IMG/VR virus record: IMGVR_UViG_2778261696_000006
Direction: 5' to 3' (one strand)
Source of the DNA: a virus
Taxonomy: Duplodnaviria > Heunggongvirae > Uroviricota > Caudoviricetes
DNA: 28,988 nucleotides
In this document: piece by piece, positions 1 through 6,717 of the stretch
Position numbering within the stretch: the stretch's first letter is position 1
Layout of the letters: the number at the start of each line of letters is the position of its first letter
Position numbers and translations under genes: made by a program
The notes under the pieces: generated by a model
What the model saw: only the letters and a program-made list of their open reading frames with translations
Told to the model about the DNA's origin: nothing
Databases searched by the model: none

Positions 1-17
1 AACACGAGCAAACAGAC

Positions 18-46
18 AAAAAAAGGGCCAGCCAATTGGCCAGCCC
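18..46 (-). terminator. Putative rho-independent terminator downstream of int
   Basis: On minus-strand RNA GGGCUGGCC-AAUU-GGCUGGCCC forms a 9-bp stem (two G-U pairs) followed by a U7 run; on the plus strand the stem has two mismatches and no U-tract. Confidence 0.45.
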
Positions 47-172
47 TTCTTAACAGGATGTCGCTTAAGCGAAATCTTAGTTAAGACGCTCCTATTAACA
101 CCCCACAGCGAACAAACACTTACCATATAAAACAACTAGTTAAAGTAATTTTTAATGCAGTGAATTGCAGTG

Positions 173-1222
173 TTATGCAACCTCTGCCGCCACATTGTCG
201 CCAACATACAGCGATAACGGATTGAGGGTTACAGCTTGTTCAAGGTGGTCAGGAGCAAAGTGCGCATACTTCATTGTTTCTCGAATATTGGCATGTCCGA
301 GAATTTTCTGCAGCACCAGTATATTCCCTCCGTTCATCATAAAATGCGCACCAAAAGTATGACGCAAAACGTGCGTCTTCTGCCCTTCCGTCAATTCAAT
401 ATTCGTTAGTTTGAGCATCTTTTTAAACTCCTGATAGCAGGGTTTAAACATTCTGCCTTGACGTACGGACAACTCGTCGTACAGCCATTTAGGAATAGGA
501 ACTGTGCGATTCTTCTTACCTTTGGTTTTGGTGAACGTTAGTTTATATGGAGAAAGTTGAGGTCGGGTCAATCTCTCCGCTTCCCCCCATCGAGCGCCGG
601 TTGCAAGGCACACCTTAACAATCATGGTGAGGTCTTCTTTGCCGTATTGCTCGCAGGCTCGAAACAGCTCCGGGAGCTGAGACAAAGTTAGCCAGGACAT
701 TTCTTTCTCAGCTTCTTTGAATACTCGGATCCCATCAAGTGGATTGGGTAGGCTCCACTCCCCTAACCGGCGGAGCTCATTAAACACTGCTTCTAGGTAT
801 TGTTGTTCGCGATTGACGGTTATAGGTTTGGCGATCCATTTCGAGGGGTCTTTATGATAACCATTGTCTATTTCACCACGTAATCGACGGTCACGATAAT
901 GAGCCCAGTCTTTCGCGGTAAGGCGAGATGCAATCGGGTCGCCAAGTCCATTACATACGATTTGAAGCTTTGCAAACCTCGACTTACTGGCGACTAACGC
1001 TTGACCGTGCAAATTGTGCCAAAGCTGAATAATCTCGCTTAAGCGTCGGCGGTCTTCTTTCTTGCCGAGCCACGGCTTATCTTCACTCTCGCTTTTGGTA
1101 AATGCTTCAAATGCCTCGGCCTCACCTTTGGTATTGAACTGCCGACGTATACGCCGTCCTTCTCGACCATTTGGATAGAGTTCACACAACCATTTTCCAC
1201 TTTTTTGTTTACTTACAGTCAT
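173..1222 (-). CDS. int: Phage integrase, tyrosine recombinase (P2/186 Int family)
   Basis: 349-aa ORF with ATG start; C-terminal HVLRHTF...MKYAH catalytic motifs typical of tyrosine recombinases; position at prophage end next to repressor. Confidence 0.9.
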   Translation of the reverse strand: MTVSKQKSGKWLCELYPNGREGRRIRRQFNTKGEAEAFEAFTKSESEDKPWLGKKEDRRRLSEIIQLWHNLHGQALVASKSRFAKLQIVCNGLGDPIASRLTAKDWAHYRDRRLRGEIDNGYHKDPSKWIAKPITVNREQQYLEAVFNELRRLGEWSLPNPLDGIRVFKEAEKEMSWLTLSQLPELFRACEQYGKEDLTMIVKVCLATGARWGEAERLTRPQLSPYKLTFTKTKGKKNRTVPIPKWLYDELSVRQGRMFKPCYQEFKKMLKLTNIELTEGQKTHVLRHTFGAHFMMNGGNILVLQKILGHANIRETMKYAHFAPDHLEQAVTLNPLSLYVGDNVAAEVA

Positions 1223-1246
1223 TGCGATACCGAGGCTAAAAGAAAA

Positions 1247-1585
1247 TTAATTACAAAGGGCTGTAGCGGCATCAATCACCGGTGAAATTGAAATTTTAAC
1301 GCCGTCATACTCAGGGTCATCCTTCCATACGTCATCTAAGTTAGACCCCTCCAGCTTTCCTGATTTAACAGCATCTACCGCCATGCCATTCAGAGGATAT
1401 CTATCATCAGTTTTGATGTCATACACAAAAGCATAAGCACGGTTAACACATGATACCTTTGCCTTTTCAAAGGTTAGAGGCCACTTGTCACCATATGCAG
1501 CGCCGTCTATCTCTTTAAACTTCTCAGCGGCTATGGCTGAGGAAGAAAGTGCAATGCAGACTATCGCAAATATAAACTTTTTCAT
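1247..1585 (-). CDS. Small secreted/periplasmic protein of unknown function (moron between cI and int)
   Basis: 112-aa ORF, N-terminal signal peptide MKKFIFAIVCIALSSSAIAAE, two Cys in mature part, strong RBS AAGGAG 6 nt upstream of ATG; resembles small YebY/DUF2511-type periplasmic proteins from memory only. Confidence 0.6.
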   Translation of the reverse strand: MKKFIFAIVCIALSSSAIAAEKFKEIDGAAYGDKWPLTFEKAKVSCVNRAYAFVYDIKTDDRYPLNGMAVDAVKSGKLEGSNLDDVWKDDPEYDGVKISISPVIDAATALCN

Positions 1586-1594
1586 TACTGCTCC

Positions 1595-2440
1595 TTAAAC
1601 ATGCTTTTCCAAAGTAAAAATAACCGCACCTGATGGTGTGATATCTGAAATATTACATTCAAACTCAGCAGACTTATTTGATAACCTGACCTTTCCGCCT
1701 GGCAACCTGATTACGTCAAAAACATCGAGTGCGCCATCAATACCAATAAGCCAGCGACCATTTCCTATCTTCGAGTTAGAACTATCAACAAGCCAAGATG
1801 TGCTCACACCATCAATAAACACTAAATCATCAGTATTTGATGGAACCATAGATATATCAGGAGTCCAGCGTCCGATATCTTTGAGTTCGCCCGCCTCGAG
1901 GCGGCACTTTCTAATCGTTAAAGCATTTGCCGGTTCACCATCATTACTGTTACGCATCTGGCCTTTTCCGGTTGATAACCATTCTAACGATACGCCAGTA
2001 TCAAGGGCGCAAGTGACAACCACGTCACCGGGGAAAAAATCGCGTCTAACCCAAGTGCTTATAGTGCCGGAAGATATACCTAATAAATCTCCAAGCTCTT
2101 TTTGCAGAGTAAAACCATACGCATCGAGAATCCGACGCAGAACCGCCCTCCCTCCATTTGCCATGATTTCATCATAGAGTTGCTTACCTTTAAGCTTAGT
2201 TTTCACCACTTCAAATCTTGCATTTGCAAGCTCACCATTAATTAGCCATCGCAGGTCAGCTCCAGTATCAAGAGCACACTCAACGAAAACGTTGCTAGGG
2301 ATTACGTTTCTAGCAAGCCAGCTACTCACGTTGTTTGCATGTATGCCAAGCCTTTCGGCTAGTTCCTTTTGCTGCTTAAAGCCGTATGCAGAAAGGACAC
2401 GTTCCAATGCGGCAGACGCATTAACATCATTTTTAGACAT
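1595..2440 (-). CDS. cI: 186-type CI immunity repressor with tandemly duplicated N-terminal HTH domain
   Basis: Track ORF 1595-2629 trimmed to internal ATG at 2440 (MSKNDVNA...); two copies of motif AYGF-QKEL-LGI...W...CALDTG-L-WL-G, C-terminal region resembles 186 CI C-terminal domain (...LPGGKV...FEC...). Confidence 0.75.
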   Translation of the reverse strand: MSKNDVNASAALERVLSAYGFKQQKELAERLGIHANNVSSWLARNVIPSNVFVECALDTGADLRWLINGELANARFEVVKTKLKGKQLYDEIMANGGRAVLRRILDAYGFTLQKELGDLLGISSGTISTWVRRDFFPGDVVVTCALDTGVSLEWLSTGKGQMRNSNDGEPANALTIRKCRLEAGELKDIGRWTPDISMVPSNTDDLVFIDGVSTSWLVDSSNSKIGNGRWLIGIDGALDVFDVIRLPGGKVRLSNKSAEFECNISDITPSGAVIFTLEKHV

Positions 2441-2461
2441 ATAACACCAACAAGAATTTTG

Positions 2462-2490
2462 TTTACAACCAAAATTTAGCGATCTATATT
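2462..2490 (+). promoter_or_regulatory. Putative rightward lytic promoter (pR-like): -35 TTTACA, 17-bp spacer, -10 TATATT
   Basis: Sigma70-like hexamers in the 113-bp cI/apl intergenic region, flanked by ACACC/GGTGT inverted half-sites (2444-2448, 2491-2495, 2511-2515). Confidence 0.4.
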
Positions 2491-2543
2491 GGTGTTCACC
2501 GACCAAGATGCACACCACTGCACTACATTTCAAACAACAGGAG

Positions 2544-2572
2544 ATAATGCGATATGTCAGATGCAAAATCAA
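2544..2572 (-). promoter_or_regulatory. Putative leftward lysogenic promoter (pL-like), convergent with pR
   Basis: On minus strand TTGATT (2567-2572) -17 bp- CATTAT (2544-2549); would give face-to-face transcription with the pR candidate as described for 186. Confidence 0.25.
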
Positions 2573-2925
2573 TCTCGACGCACGACTCGCAAAACTCACA
2601 AAATCAAACTGTGCTGCTAGATCCAACACAGTTTGATGCCATCGTTACCGCCATGCTGCCAGCTCTACAGACAATGATTCGCTCCGCTATGTCAGACACG
2701 ATGACTGTGAAAGACTTCGCCGCTACTCGCGGTGTTAGCGAGCGTCTGGTCTGGCAATGGCTCGATGAGGGAGTCCTTCTCAAAGCTCCGACCAAAGACT
2801 TTTCCAACAAAGAGGAAGCTGCTAAACGAAGCCGAACCCTCGTAAATGTAAAAGCATGGCGCGATAAGCTGACTCAACAAGCGATTGATTGTCGCTACAT
2901 CGACCAGCGCACCGCTCTTAACTGA
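2554..2925 (+). CDS. Apl/Cox-like HTH protein (putative excisionase and switch regulator); start uncertain
   Basis: 123-aa ORF, RBS AGGAG 9 nt upstream, HTH-like segment TVKDFAATRGVSERLVWQWLDEGVL; first gene of rightward early operon, position equivalent to 186 apl / P2 cox. Confidence 0.5.
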   Translation: MSDAKSISTHDSQNSQNQTVLLDPTQFDAIVTAMLPALQTMIRSAMSDTMTVKDFAATRGVSERLVWQWLDEGVLLKAPTKDFSNKEEAAKRSRTLVNVKAWRDKLTQQAIDCRYIDQRTALN

Positions 2926-2957
2926 ATTTGATTATGCAAGTTAGAGGGAATTTAACC

Positions 2958-3467
2958 ATGTTTGATTTTCAGGTTTCCAAACATCCCCACTATGACGAAG
3001 CATGCCGCATTTTCGCACAGCGTCACAACATGGCGAAGCTGGCCGAGCGTGCAGGTATGAACGTTCAAACGTTACGTAACAAGCTCAACCCGGAACAGCC
3101 TCACCAGTTCACGCCGCCTGAATTGTGGCTGCTGACTGACCTGACCGAAGACTCAACCCTCATTGATGGTTTTTTAGCGCAGATTCACTGCCTACCATGC
3201 GTGCCGGTTAATGAGTTGGCTAAAGACAAATTGCAGTCTTATGTCATGCGCGCAATGCGTGAACTCGGCGAACTGGCGAGCGGCGCGGTATCTGATGAAC
3301 GTCTGACCACTGCCCGTAAGCACAACATGATTGAAAGCGTTAACTCCGGCATTCGCATGTTGTCATTGTCGGCTCTGGCGCTGCATGCACGTCTGCAGAC
3401 TAATCCAGCTATGTCGAGCGTGGTCGATACCATGAGCGGTATTGGCGCATCGTTTGGTCTGATTTGA
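2958..3467 (+). CDS. cII: 186-type CII regulatory protein
   Basis: Track ORF trimmed to ATG at 2958 (MFDFQVSKHPHYDEACR...), matches remembered 186 CII N-terminus and length (169 aa); RBS AGAGGGA upstream. Confidence 0.8.
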   Translation: MFDFQVSKHPHYDEACRIFAQRHNMAKLAERAGMNVQTLRNKLNPEQPHQFTPPELWLLTDLTEDSTLIDGFLAQIHCLPCVPVNELAKDKLQSYVMRAMRELGELASGAVSDERLTTARKHNMIESVNSGIRMLSLSALALHARLQTNPAMSSVVDTMSGIGASFGLI

Positions 3468-3468
3468 G

Positions 3469-3675
3469 GTGCGTATGCTGAAAAGTGAACCGTCATTCGC
3501 ATCTCTGCTCGTTAAGCAAAGCCCCGGCATGCACTACGGCCACGGCTGGATCGCAGGTAAGGACGGCAAGCGCTGGCACCCGAGCCACTCGCAGGCTGAT
3601 TTACTGGCTGGCCTCTCTACTCAAAAGCGGGGGGGATCATGGCTATCGAAGCTGTTTCCGCGACTGTTCCGCTAA
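3469..3675 (+). CDS. Fil-like small protein (possible host cell-division inhibitor); start GTG 3469 or ATG 3475
   Basis: 68-aa ORF directly following cII stop (translational coupling), motif SPGMHYGHGWIAGKDGKRW; position equals 186 fil. Confidence 0.45.
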   Translation: MRMLKSEPSFASLLVKQSPGMHYGHGWIAGKDGKRWHPSHSQADLLAGLSTQKRGGSWLSKLFPRLFR

Positions 3676-3977
3676 AAGCGGGTGAACGTCTGGCCGGTCT
3701 CAATCATGTTGCCGAATTGCGCGCGAGATATTGGGGCGATAGCTGGAAAGAGGTTGAACGTTTTGTCGATGATATGCGCAATAAACGTGACCCACAATTT
3801 GAAGAAAATAATCGGGCGCTGGCCGCTATTTTCTTTCTGGCAAAAATACCGGCGGCTCGTCATGAACTCGAATTAAGTGAGCTGACTACTGACGAGAAAA
3901 AGGCGCTTATTACAGCGATGAATCATTTTCGTGCAGTAGTGAGCTTATTTCCCAAACGGCTAACCATGCCGAATTAA
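3639..3977 (+). CDS. Hypothetical early protein (position of 186 dhr-region genes)
   Basis: 112-aa ORF with ATG and G-rich RBS, overlaps preceding gene by 37 nt in another frame. Confidence 0.5.
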   Translation: MAIEAVSATVPLKAGERLAGLNHVAELRARYWGDSWKEVERFVDDMRNKRDPQFEENNRALAAIFFLAKIPAARHELELSELTTDEKKALITAMNHFRAVVSLFPKRLTMPN

Positions 3978-4044
3978 TCCAAACAGAAATTTAATGGCGT
4001 AAACCCGCCGGGCATCTTATTGCCCGAAATCAGGAGAGTTAATT

Positions 4045-4272
4045 ATGCGTAATACCGAAATCCGTAGTTTTAACACTGATAGCGATGCGCTGGCCGTATT
4101 GCTGACCGATGCAAAAAAAGAAGAGCGTAAAGACCGCGCGCTCGCTGTTTCCATCCGCCTTGAGGCGCTGGCTATCCATATTACCAGAGAGGGAATGAGC
4201 GGCACCGAAGCTGCCGAACTGCTGCGCCGTGAAGCAACCCGCTTTGAGAATGAATCACAGGAGCTGCACTAA
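4045..4272 (+). CDS. Hypothetical small early protein
   Basis: 75-aa ORF, RBS AGGAG 8 nt upstream of ATG, TAATG overlap with next gene. Confidence 0.55.
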   Translation: MRNTEIRSFNTDSDALAVLLTDAKKEERKDRALAVSIRLEALAIHITREGMSGTEAAELLRREATRFENESQELH

Positions 4273-4493
4273 TGGCCGACGCAATGGATTTAGCACAACT
4301 GCGCGAGCAGGAAGACCGCGAACGCCACATCAGCAACGCACGCACCCGTATCGCTGCACCTTCCCGTTTTCTTTGCGATGAATGTGACGCACCAATCCCG
4401 GAAGCTCGCCGCATTGCGATTCCGGGCGTGGCTTTTTGCGTAACCTGCCAGCAAATCGCAGAGCTAAAAAACAAACACTATCGGGGGGTATAA
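4272..4493 (+). CDS. TraR/DksA-family C4 zinc-finger protein
   Basis: 73 aa with C-x2-C-x17-C-x2-C (CDEC...CVTC) characteristic of TraR/DksA-type zinc fingers; lies immediately upstream of replication gene. Confidence 0.7.
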   Translation: MADAMDLAQLREQEDRERHISNARTRIAAPSRFLCDECDAPIPEARRIAIPGVAFCVTCQQIAELKNKHYRGV

Positions 4494-4494
4494 A

Positions 4495-6717
4495 TTGGCT
4501 GTTCAATTCGCTTATCCGTGGAACGTTCCACGGTCGGCAATCTCCAGCCCATACCTTACTTATGCGCAACAGCATCGCCGCGACCGTATGTTCGCGGCTT
4601 TGCTGCATGCAAAAAAGGTGCTTTCTCTCCAGCCCGACTGCGTGCGGTTAGATGTTTATCGCACTGCTGCGGTGCTGGAGCAAAATCAGGGTAGTCAACG
4701 AGCCAATGCATTTTTAATCAGCTTCTGCAAAAAGGCATTGCCGCGTCTTGAACTGGTCGCAAAAAAATACGAATGCGCTGGTATCAACAGCAAGGTATCA
4801 ACCGCTGTTTTTGGAAGTCATTTTGATACTCAGCAAATGCAATATCTGTCGTCACGCATGGTTAATATGGTCGCCCGATATAACCGTCTCCCGGACATGT
4901 CGCGCGCTGATGTTGACCTGTTGGCCGCTGATATTGCTAATTTCATTCGTGGTGAACTTGCCAACATTAATGACCACGGATTCGGCGAGCTTAAAACGCT
5001 GTACACCTGGTATATTCGTGCTGGCTTTATTTCCCTCCAATTTAACGTTATCCCACCACATTGGGAGCGGGTTGAAAAAAAATATGTCGGTGCGGATGAA
5101 ATCGCACCGGCTATCGCCAAAATGTTTAACGATGGGTGGTGGCGCGGTCGTTTGCGCCGTGTTGCAGCTACGTGGCGCGAACACCTGCAAATTGCAGTCG
5201 GCAACGTCAGTAAGAAAAAAAACACTTACGCGAGTAAAAACTGCGTGACTGACTGGCGTGAACAAAAGCGCCGCACTCGTGAATTTCTCAAAGGTCTGGA
5301 TCTCGAAGACGAAGACGGCAACCGTATCAGCCTGATTGAAAAATATGATGGCTCAGTTGCTAACCCTGCGATTCGCCGCTGTGAGCTCATGACCCGCATT
5401 CGTGGGTTTGAAAACATCTGTAATGAGCTCGGTTATGTCGGTGAGTTTTACACTCTAACCGCGCCGTCAAAATATCACGCCACGACTAAAGCCGGTTACC
5501 GTAACAGCAAATGGAGCGGTGCCAGCCCGGCTGACACGCAAAACTATCTAACCGGTATCTGGGCGCGTATCCGTGCCAAACTACATCGGGAAGATGTCCG
5601 TATTTTCGGTATTCGTGTCGCCGAGCCTCATCACGACGGCACTCCACACTGGCACATGCTGATGTTCATGCTGCCGGAAGATGTTGAATATGTTCGCTCC
5701 ATCGTCCGTAAATACGCATGGAAAGAAGACCGCCACGAACTGAAAAGCGATAAATCCAAAAAAGCACGTTTCCACGCCGAGTCCATTGACCCGGAGAAAG
5801 GCAGTGCAACCGGCTATGTTGCTAAATACATCTCAAAAAATATCGACGGTTATGCTCTCGATGGTGAAACCGATGATGAAAGCGGTGAGCTGCTGAAAGA
5901 GACAGCCCCCGCCGTTTCAGCATGGGCTGCGCGCTGGCACATCCGTCAGTTTCAGTTTATTGGTGGTGCGCCGGTGACGGTTTACCGTGAGTTGCGTCGC
6001 CTCGCTGATACCGAAACCGCGCGCGGTCTGAGCGTTGAGTTTGCCGCCGTCCATGATGCCGCCGACGCTGGTGACTGGGCTGGTTATGTTAATGCTCAGG
6101 GTGGGCCGTTTGTCCGTCGCGATGATTTACAGGTGCGCACACTGTATGAACCGCGTACCGAGCTTAATCAGTACGGTGAGGAAACGGTATGTATTAAGGG
6201 GGTCTACGATTCCTCCATAGGTGCAGGGAGTCCGATTTTAACCCGGCTCACTCAGTGGAAGATTGTTCCGAAGCGTGCTGTTGATTTGGCCGTTGACCTT
6301 CAGGACGGCAAAGCCGTCCCTCGGAGTTCTGTCAATAACTGTACGGGAAGCGAAAGCGATCCACCGATACTGGATTTAACAAAACCACTGAGTCGGCGTG
6401 AAAGACGAGAATTGACCAACCGACTCAGGAAGCAAAAGCCAGCAGCACGGCGAAAACTCATCCACGGAACGGATGAGCAAAACGCAGCTATAGCTAAAAC
6501 TATCGACGAGATACATCTGACAACCGGCATTAATATCAGCCGGGGCGAAGCCCTGCACCTGATGGCCGGTGGTAAAAGTTGTTTTGATGGTAAATGGCTA
6601 CGCGGAACGGCCAAAGGAGAAATATTTTCCGCAGCACCATCGCATGAGGCTAAAGCTCGGAAAATCCTTAATCGTGTTGCGGCGATGGCTGAAGCATCAA
6701 AACCAATACATGAGTAA
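4495..6717 (+). CDS. A: Replication initiation protein A (rolling-circle HUH endonuclease); start is TTG 4495 or a downstream ATG
   Basis: 740-aa ORF containing HUH motif (TPHWHMLMF) and catalytic tyrosine motif YVAKYISKNIDGYALDG as in P2/186 gpA. Confidence 0.9.
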   Translation: MAVQFAYPWNVPRSAISSPYLTYAQQHRRDRMFAALLHAKKVLSLQPDCVRLDVYRTAAVLEQNQGSQRANAFLISFCKKALPRLELVAKKYECAGINSKVSTAVFGSHFDTQQMQYLSSRMVNMVARYNRLPDMSRADVDLLAADIANFIRGELANINDHGFGELKTLYTWYIRAGFISLQFNVIPPHWERVEKKYVGADEIAPAIAKMFNDGWWRGRLRRVAATWREHLQIAVGNVSKKKNTYASKNCVTDWREQKRRTREFLKGLDLEDEDGNRISLIEKYDGSVANPAIRRCELMTRIRGFENICNELGYVGEFYTLTAPSKYHATTKAGYRNSKWSGASPADTQNYLTGIWARIRAKLHREDVRIFGIRVAEPHHDGTPHWHMLMFMLPEDVEYVRSIVRKYAWKEDRHELKSDKSKKARFHAESIDPEKGSATGYVAKYISKNIDGYALDGETDDESGELLKETAPAVSAWAARWHIRQFQFIGGAPVTVYRELRRLADTETARGLSVEFAAVHDAADAGDWAGYVNAQGGPFVRRDDLQVRTLYEPRTELNQYGEETVCIKGVYDSSIGAGSPILTRLTQWKIVPKRAVDLAVDLQDGKAVPRSSVNNCTGSESDPPILDLTKPLSRRERRELTNRLRKQKPAARRKLIHGTDEQNAAIAKTIDEIHLTTGINISRGEALHLMAGGKSCFDGKWLRGTAKGEIFSAAPSHEAKARKILNRVAAMAEASKPIHE

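Follow-up and report, generated by a model that had tools for sequence, protein, structure and literature searches.

The question raised by this locus is whether the short spacer between the divergent cI and apl-like genes of a prophage carries a lysis-lysogeny switch of the phage 186 kind, in which a lytic and a lysogenic promoter face each other, and, if so, where the leftward promoter that would maintain repressor synthesis in the lysogen is located. The face-to-face pR/pL switch of 186, with its regulators CI, Apl, and CII, was reportedly described by Dodd, Kalionis and Egan in 1990 and by Callen et al. in 2004. The PSP3-type version of the region has been available as sequence since 2003.

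The logic of the 186 and P2 switches is established and comprises convergent promoters, interference of pR with pL, relief of this interference by CI, and Apl or Cox sites between the promoters (PMC7498355, PMC6593788, PMC3675496, PMC1904268). In 186, pL is inhibited 5.6-fold by pR, mainly through a sitting-duck mechanism, and a pL− mutation disrupts the ribosome-binding site of apl, which confirms that pL and the apl translation start overlap in that phage (PMC6593788). The interference is relieved once CI represses pR, and three CI operators span the stretch from the cI start to pR +1 (PMC3675496). Across P2-like phages, the starts of the convergent promoters lie 40 to 60 bp apart (PMC7498355). 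For PsP3, the Cox/Apl analogue has been treated as an unrelated singleton, and CI has been described only by its longer C-terminal domain (PMC3448106); the records of PSP3, SW9, SEN1, and Midge carry no annotated regulatory features.

Here, we analysed the immunity region of a 29-kb window, i.e., the whole stretch of DNA under study, for which an original prediction, made from the sequence alone, had proposed a compact switch with face-to-face promoters at positions 2441 to 2580. Judged from sequence comparison, this interval is probably the pR/pL lysis-lysogeny switch, built on the 186 plan, of a PSP3-type Eganvirus prophage.

Prophage type and gene order

The window represents a 186-type prophage (genus Eganvirus, P2 group) whose immunity region is of the PSP3 type. 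A 241-bp query from this region matched the E. coli EC12 chromosome at 100% identity, and there the prophage lies between yfiB and rplS. Matches to the immunity region were present in 68 of 5,426 complete E. coli genomes (about 1%), and 17 of these 68 contained at least 80% of the query. The shorter E. coli matches listed begin at query positions 96-123, corresponding to about 2475 or further right, so that a junction between two halves of the spacer is directly visible. Over cI-apl, the nearest sequenced phages are the Salmonella phages SW9 and SI22 (84% DNA identity), followed by SEN1 and PSP3.

The cI and apl genes diverge, and apl opens the early lytic operon (apl, cII, fil, and later gene A), the order being that of the 186 record; on the + strand, cII is followed by a fil homologue, a DUF5347 gene, and, further downstream, the replication gene A (Table 1). 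The identities proposed for the cI and apl-like genes were borne out by homology to 186 CI and by an Apl-type helix-turn-helix (HTH) match, respectively. The window CI contains PF07022 twice (E=1.5e-47) and PF16452 (E=4.6e-19), is 32% identical to 186 CI over 175 aa, and matches PDB 2FJR at E=4e-21. PSP3, SW9, SEN1, and Midge have a CI of the same tandem-HTH family (73-91% identity) and the same Apl-like gene (76-98%), and the window joins an SW9-type CI to a SEN1/Midge-type apl allele. The right half of the region (2497-2577) is identical to PSP3 (NC_005340) and SW9 in the aligned regions. A search of positions 1-6000 for structured RNAs gave no Rfam match at E<=1.

Table 1. Annotated and predicted features of the immunity region and prophage end, in window coordinates
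Feature	Position	Strand	Remarks
Three TGCA with exact 10-bp spacing	156, 166, 176 (156-179)		Prophage end, adjoining Int arm-type sites; candidate excisionase sites
int	173-1222	-	
DUF2511 gene	1247-1585	-	
cI immunity repressor gene (281 aa)	1595-2440	-	Two Phage_CI_repr HTH domains and one Phage_CI_C domain
Type-specific left half of spacer	2441-2496		Predicted CI operator zone overlapping pR; the equivalent 186 stretch holds CI operators
Probable cI ribosome-binding site GGTGT	2444-2448	-	4-8 nt before the cI ATG; same as the first ACACC copy
pR -35 TTTACA	2462-2467	+	TTTACT in 186 pR
pR -10 TATATT	2485-2490	+	As in 186 pR; start predicted at about 2497-2499
Conserved block	2497-2572		Spans -57 to +18 relative to the apl ATG; between-starts zone, apl Shine-Dalgarno and ATG, whole predicted pL
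Alternative leftward site TTGAAA-17-CATCTT	2505-2533	-	9.1 bits
TGCA-N6-TGCA	2509-2512, 2519-2522		Candidate Apl-like operators between the predicted start sites
apl-like Shine-Dalgarno GGAG	2540-2543	+	
Predicted pL -10 CATTAT	2544-2549	-	CATGAT in 186 pL and the Brenneria variant; predicted start about 2538
Apl/Cox-like gene (123 aa)	2554-2925	+	About 45 variable N-terminal residues, then HTH and wing
Predicted pL -35 TTGATT	2567-2572	-	Within apl-like codons 5-7; TTGCGA at the same offset in 186 pL
cII	2958-3467	+	
Inverted repeat ATGTTTG-N13-CAAACAT	2958-2984		First cII codons; identical repeat inside the annotated CII-site stretch of 186

Promoter candidates in the cI-apl spacer

The spacer measures 113 bp, as had been proposed, and runs from 2441 to 2553 between the cI start codon (2438-2440, complement) and the apl-like ATG at 2554. 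Promoters were scored on both strands by a consensus scan with a threshold of 9/12 matches and by a simple sigma-70 weight matrix that we built from classic consensus frequencies. The rightward site TTTACA-17-TATATT at 2462-2490 (+) was recovered independently by the consensus scan with 10/12 matches, and with 13.3 bits it was the top sigma-70 site among ~58,000 window positions on both strands. The original prediction of a good rightward and a weaker leftward promoter thus agrees with scoring on both strands, the rightward site being the best in the window and the leftward one the best minus-strand site in 2441-3000.

The leftward candidate, TTGATT-17-CATTAT (2572-2544, -), was found at the coordinates given for it, with its -35 inside the 5' end of apl: the + strand reads ATAATG (2544-2549) and AATCAA (2567-2572), which are CATTAT and TTGATT on the - strand, separated by a 17-bp spacer. 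Its hexamers match the consensus at only 8/12 positions, and because this falls below the threshold the site was absent from the consensus-scan list. On the weight matrix it reached 9.4 bits, a score equalled or beaten at 27 of 57,916 window positions. When 2491-2610 was shuffled with dinucleotide composition preserved, such a site arose at one fixed position with a frequency of 8e-4 and anywhere in the 120 bp in 7% of cases. The hexamers by themselves are therefore mildly better than chance, and position and conservation carry the weight. Scored on the same matrix, the pL of 186 reached 8.2 bits, below the window candidate, and ranked fourth among the local minus-strand sites of 186, so matrix scores alone cannot fix the location.

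As for position, the curated 186 record gives pR as TTTACT-17-TATATT and pL as TTGCGA-17-CATGAT; in 186, the pL -10 occupies the positions 5-10 bp upstream of the apl ATG and the -35 falls 13-18 bp into the gene, and the offsets of the window candidate are identical. Further, the start-codon surroundings of the window and 186 align without gaps at 24/38 identical positions, compared with 9.7 +/- 2.8 in a null taken from the 6-kb 186 locus, where 24/38 identity was reached at 1 of 5,963 positions. This alignment and the identical pL offsets from the apl ATG support the proposed likeness to the face-to-face pR/pL arrangement of 186.

Conservation across related loci

Conservation was assessed over 27 distinct sequences, comprising the window, five phages, one E. 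coli prophage (strain S3), and 20 further loci found with the Apl-like protein as query in a protein search and a genome scan (Apl identity 98% down to 52%). The 20 loci come from Enterobacter, Citrobacter, Escherichia, Yokenella, Kosakonia, Pantoea, Erwinia, Brenneria, and Symbiopectobacterium, and Salmonella is also represented among the 27. The rightward promoter was the top + strand site in 27/27 loci. From the pR -10 through apl codon 6 there were zero indels across the 27 loci, with pR 1 bp nearer in the three Brenneria/Symbiopectobacterium loci. The predicted pL -35 reads TTGATT in 25 loci and TTGCTT in two, and the -10 reads CATTAT in 25 and CATGAT, the 186 version, in two.

Column conservation runs as a single block up to +18 and collapses at +19, bordering the outer edge of the predicted pL -35. 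Within the block, apl codons 4-6 show no silent third-position change in any of the 27 loci, whereas across the conserved HTH segment of the same protein each degenerate codon varies at its third base, indicating that the constraint acts on the DNA and not on the protein; residues 7-25 of the Apl-like protein show no conservation at all. The block is kept even in relatives with 52-53% protein identity and 57-67% CI identity. Separately, in the Salmonella phage RE2010 and the Klebsiella phage KP12, which have unrelated Apl proteins and a single-HTH CI, the best leftward site also falls at +18..-10, and this agreement with the window and 186 suggests that a pL lying across the apl start codon is general in 186-type switches. 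ESSI-2 and YenM_324 were uninformative for the pL position, since the apl starts annotated for them seem doubtful.

The sequence anatomy, the homologies, the conservation, and the positional identity with the mapped 186 promoters are direct observations. We consider 2572-2544 (-) the most likely maintenance promoter pL, a reading favoured by the end of the conserved block at +18, the fixed silent sites, the 186 pL offsets, and the need for a CII-independent promoter. This need arises because cII sits in the repressed pR operon, so that cI has to be transcribed without CII in the lysogen; relatives in Kosakonia cowanii have the same switch and no cII at all. The pL hexamers extend over the stretch between the apl SD and ATG and over the first codons, and part of the pL conservation could stem from translation signals, Apl-like operators, or recent recombination of the module.

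Possible alternative origins of cI transcription

Two other readings of the leftward transcript were weighed. The first places the maintenance promoter at TTGAAA-17-CATCTT (2533-2505), with a start near 2498; the two starts would then nearly coincide, the footprints of the polymerases would overlap, and these would directly exclude each other instead of transcribing over the facing promoter. At 9.1 bits this site is nearly equal to the favoured pL (9.4 bits), it lies in the invariant block, its score is kept in 23/27 relatives, and the matrix cannot tell the true 186 pL from neighbouring sites. It is nevertheless degraded in the remaining four (L013, L017, and L025 at 5.3 bits each, L020 at 1.9 bits), and L017 shares the CI type of the window. 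The CATCTT -10 (2505-2510) has 3/6 matches, with two positions variable, and overlaps the invariant TGCA at 2509, and the site as a whole has no positional counterpart in 186, RE2010, or KP12. We regard this location as improbable.

The second reading holds that 2441-2580 contains no working leftward promoter, that cI is transcribed from pE or from a promoter inside apl, and that the conservation reflects the apl translation start, Apl-like sites, and a recently shared recombination module. To this we give little credence. The overlap of the hexamers with the Shine-Dalgarno, ATG, and first codons, the shuffling of modules among CI types, which points to recent exchange, and the 7% of local shuffles in which an 8/12 match appears somewhere in 120 bp all speak for it. 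They have to be set against the CII-independent cI transcription that the lysogen needs and against the relatives without cII, which retain the same block. Moreover, 2441-3000 holds no better minus-strand site, the conservation reaches the relatives of 52-53% protein identity with silent sites fixed exactly to +18, and the candidate has the same offsets as the mapped 186 pL.

CI repressor and its predicted operator zone

The CI repressor carries a duplicated HTH domain, one copy of which is invariant and the other hypervariable. The inner copy, HTH2, whose recognition helix reads SSGTISTWVRR, hardly changes between E. coli and Brenneria and is the sole HTH in a 190-aa single-domain relative; the outer copy, HTH1, is hypervariable and tracks the type-specific DNA. 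That DNA is the left half of the spacer, 2441-2496, which differs between CI types (at least six seen) with the pR -35, -10, and their spacing kept. The right half, 2497-2572, is common to all CI types. The cI and apl alleles occur in all combinations, and this shuffling of the module among CI types indicates recent exchange.

A type-specific left half that coincides with the operator span of 186 suggests that CI should bind within 2441-2496, although no CI operators were identified there with confidence. Operator geometry may differ from that of 186 because the repressor has an extra HTH domain. The left half contains an inverted repeat around the -35 (AATTTTG-N8-CAAAATT) and, in the window, a direct, 21-bp-spaced repeat (TAACACCAACAA / TTACAACCAAAA); the Midge and Kosakonia types have (G/T)CGATTTA repeats, likewise spaced 21 bp. 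We put forward none of these repeats as an operator.

Two further ways of locating CI sites were tried and set aside. A search for motifs common to pR and the late-activator promoter pB, which works for 186, was defeated by a pB that is nearly the same in five phages of three CI types, and its small differences among the five do not follow CI type. In 186, the distal CI sites FL and FR, about 300 bp to each side, loop to pR. A distal operator resembling FR was sought at the apl-cII junction, where the sequence is identical in phages of three CI types, so that no type-specific operator lies there; this sets the window apart from 186, and a site read by the invariant HTH2 may be present all the same. 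With no CI site at the FR position and a pB that does not depend on CI type, the looping/wheel part of the 186 system may not apply.

The recurrence of ACACC/GGTGT around pR, taken in the original prediction as a set of half-sites, is real as far as the copies go, which lie at 2444-2448 (+), 2491-2495 (-), and 2512-2516 (+); a role in repressor binding did not gain support, the repeats being at chance level and not conserved. On average, 1.8 different 5-mers occur at least three times in a shuffled 113-bp spacer, so the triple is not special. That these repeats are CI half-sites is very improbable: three copies do fall within 73 bp, and AACACCAA (2443-2450) and TTGGTGTT (2489-2496) make up an inverted repeat of 8 bp on either side of pR, but the count is no higher than chance for a stretch of 113 bp, two relatives with the same CI HTH1 recognition helix have altered copies (CCACC and GATGT in Yokenella L017, GGTGC for the second copy in SW9), the third copy lies in the half common to all CI types and is yet variable (ACATC, ACAGC, ACGTC, AAGAC), and the first copy has the position expected of the cI Shine-Dalgarno. 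In other CI types, G-rich runs occur at about the same place as this putative cI ribosome-binding site.

Apl-like protein, TGCA repeats, and cII

The Apl-like protein has a Cox/Apl-type HTH that matches the HTH of 186 Apl, and it matched phrog_575 at E=8e-5; it had no Pfam match, and a profile search against PDB sequences gave none either. Its AlphaFold model has a mean pLDDT of 64. Foldseek with this model returned nothing at E<=0.001, and the best local fold match was P2 Cox (4lhf), with a probability of 0.99 and a TM of 0.61 over 64 columns but an E of 0.14. The protein differs from 186 Apl in its 123-aa length, with a variable 45-residue N-terminal extension, and the two are alike over the HTH only (9/23 identical).

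The TTGGCA-like Apl operator of 186 is absent from the window, and TGCA repeats stand in its place. Between the predicted start sites, the TGCA-N6-TGCA pair is invariant in all relatives, and the intervening bases vary; a further TGCA lies at 2562-2565. At the prophage end, the TGCA triplet occupies the place equivalent to that of the five Apl sites at attP in 186. As a positive control, the motif method recovered the known 186 Apl motif TTGGCA. A 186-type switch would have direct-repeat operators of the Apl/Cox-type protein, spaced 10-11 bp, between the promoters as well as at att. The TGCA repeats at these two places are plausible operator candidates for the Apl-like protein; only two clear TGCA sites lie between the promoters, and 186 Apl needs three adjacent sites. 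EcS3, considered as a test of the att repeats alongside a different integrase, was uninformative, for its int is 94% identical, yet the sequence beyond the int 3' end is unrelated.

The window CII belongs, like 186 CII, to the Pfam family Phage_CP76 (PF06892, E=1e-46), and the first cII codons of both phages contain the same repeated 7-mer pair. Because the resulting inverted repeat at 2958-2984 is identical to one within the CII stretch of 186, a CII-dependent establishment promoter pE is probably present at the cII start.

Predicted start-site geometry and proposed mechanism

Taking the 186 starts as a guide, we predict starts at about 2498 (+) and about 2538 (-), which would give transcripts overlapping by 41 nt; the overlap of about 40 nt proposed earlier is right by this analogy. 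Start-to-start distances are 62 bp in 186, near 55 bp in RE2010, and near 49 bp in KP12, and the predicted starts place the window switch at the short end of the known spacing range. The description of the switch as compact therefore holds for the size of the spacer, but the start spacing of about 40 bp falls within the 40-60 bp published for P2-like phages (PMC7498355). With a polymerase footprint of -55 to +20, open complexes at the predicted starts would just touch each other at 2518.

Start sites, promoter strengths, interference, and all protein-DNA contacts in the following mechanism are taken over by analogy. A strong lytic pR (2462-2490, start ~2498) would drive the apl-like, cII, and fil operon, and a weak lysogenic pL (2572-2544, -, start ~2538) would drive cI, the DUF2511 gene, and int. 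Since the two face each other with starts ~40 bp apart, each transcript would cross the opposing promoter. When pR is free, polymerases departing from it would sweep over pL and suppress it by transcriptional interference, as in 186, and direct competition may add to this interference, as the polymerase footprints would abut at 40 bp. CI bound to operators in 2441-2496 would shut off pR and thereby free pL, sustaining CI in the lysogen, and CII would, after infection, boost leftward transcription from pE at the cII start. For the Apl-like protein, the likely targets are the TGCA repeats at the switch and at the att arm; it may damp pL, possibly also pR, and may act as an excisionase.

Comparison with 186 and P2

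The window shares with 186 the gene order, a homologous CI (HTH plus CI_C), and pR hexamers that differ by one base. It differs in having predicted starts ~40 bp apart rather than 62, with 23 bp less between the -10 hexamers, and in the second HTH domain at the N-terminus of CI. As in the Pe/Pc switch of P2, the predicted lytic and lysogenic promoters converge at a distance of a few tens of bp, the repressor is predicted to act over the lytic promoter, and the first lytic gene is predicted to encode a Cox-type HTH excisionase/repressor that binds elsewhere (PMC1904268, PMC7498355). The P2 repressor C, in contrast, is unrelated, has ~100 aa, and binds to direct repeats, whereas the window CI is of the 186 type, and P2 is without CII or pE, whereas the window has a 186-type CII. 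The window switch is 186/PSP3-like and an ordinary representative of a layout already worked out in 186.

Discussion

Together, these comparisons leave the current understanding of such switches unchanged, and what they contribute is annotation and a comparative system that is ready to use. For the annotation, they supply promoter-level predictions for an immunity region found in about 1% of complete E. coli genomes, and the same region occurs, without annotated promoters, in PSP3-like phages of Salmonella, Klebsiella, Kosakonia, Pantoea, and Brenneria.

A broader and more tentative reading, which we consider possible though rather unlikely as a whole, is that the PSP3-type switch is a modular variant of the 186 switch, with an invariant cassette, heteroimmune sets, a two-HTH repressor, and a fixed spacing. 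In the invariant cassette (2497-2572), the TGCA sites would be combined with pL and the apl start; no fewer than six heteroimmune repressor/operator sets would join the cassette at a junction inside pR; and the repressor would have gained a second HTH domain. If this is true, immunity specificity would evolve by changes confined to HTH1 and the left half-operators, an unchanging element within or close to the pR-pL block would go on being recognised by HTH2, and the 40-bp spacing, kept without indels, would add direct polymerase competition to elongation interference.

For 186-type switches in general, a pL lying across the apl start codon appears to be a conserved hallmark, seen in at least four Apl/CI lineages. 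The PSP3-type region would thereby offer a natural 40-bp counterpart of the 62-bp convergent pair that serves as the model of transcriptional interference.

Repressor domains and the mosaic junction at pR

The window cI (1595-2440) encodes a repressor with a tandem pair of Phage_CI_repr helix-turn-helix (HTH) domains, and CI length was 278-296 aa in all 27 loci. Alignment of 13 representative relatives (from L001-L032 and L037) revealed that the inner domain, HTH2 (residues ~96-158), is near-invariant, including its recognition helix SSGTISTWVRR, and that the outer domain, HTH1 (residues ~10-70), is hypervariable, its variation tracking the type-specific DNA on the left side of the predicted lytic promoter pR. 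A metagenomic relative, L037, encodes a 190-aa CI with a single HTH, corresponding to HTH2 plus the C-terminal domain (47% identity), and this shorter cI adjoins the same Apl-like gene. In a published comparison, the PsP3 CI was noted merely as having a longer C-terminal domain (PMC3448106).

The 241-bp switch-region query matched 68 E. coli genomes, of which 17 contain at least 80% of it. The shorter matches, among those listed, start at ~2475 or farther right. Every combination of cI type and apl allele was seen among the phages (the window, SW9, PSP3, SEN1, and Midge). The invariant pR-pL block therefore seems to serve as a recombination linker joining immunity modules.

Features located around the switch, the prophage end, and the late region
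Feature	Coordinates	Position	Remarks
TGCA repeats (3x)	window 156-179	straddle the int stop codon, beside arm-type Int sites	exact 10-bp spacing
DUF2511 (YebY-like) gene	window 1247-1585	between int and cI	signal-peptide-like N-terminus
Mosaic junction	window ~2475-2497	within pR spacer, -10, and +1	E. coli genome matches and phage allele combinations
'Putative ligase' CDS	L006 (phage Midge record) 1388-1453	within cI-apl spacer, over pR region	21 codons
Late activator gene (ogr/B homologue) promoter region	L010 (E. coli EC12) 1305-1380	just past the window's right end	

Genes and sites beyond the switch

The DUF2511 gene is kept in PSP3, SW9, SEN1, and Midge and, unlike in the window, is absent from 186; the K. 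cowanii relatives also lack it. Lying between int and cI, it would be transcribed from pL in lysogens and is thus a possible lysogenic-conversion gene. The arm-type Int sites adjoining the TGCA repeats are GCCGCCAC and GTCGCCAAC. Pantoea cypripedii retains copies 1 and 2 and Kosakonia cowanii, whose arm is otherwise unrelated, retains all three repeats; these are probable excisionase sites.

The late activator promoter region is nearly identical across phages of three CI types, and no 186-like CI operator pair was seen there in these phages; the late activator may be under a different form of CI control than in 186.

Variant loci

The 'putative ligase' in the Midge record is almost certainly a spurious call. 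In Enterobacter sp. EA-1 (L029), the Apl-like gene is truncated after 24 codons and the switch DNA is intact; this is probably a prophage in decay. Two Kosakonia cowanii loci (L033 and L034) carry the same cI/apl switch but lack both cII and fil, with a DUF5347 gene directly after apl. In these phages, the establishment of lysogeny would need to proceed without a CII-activated promoter.
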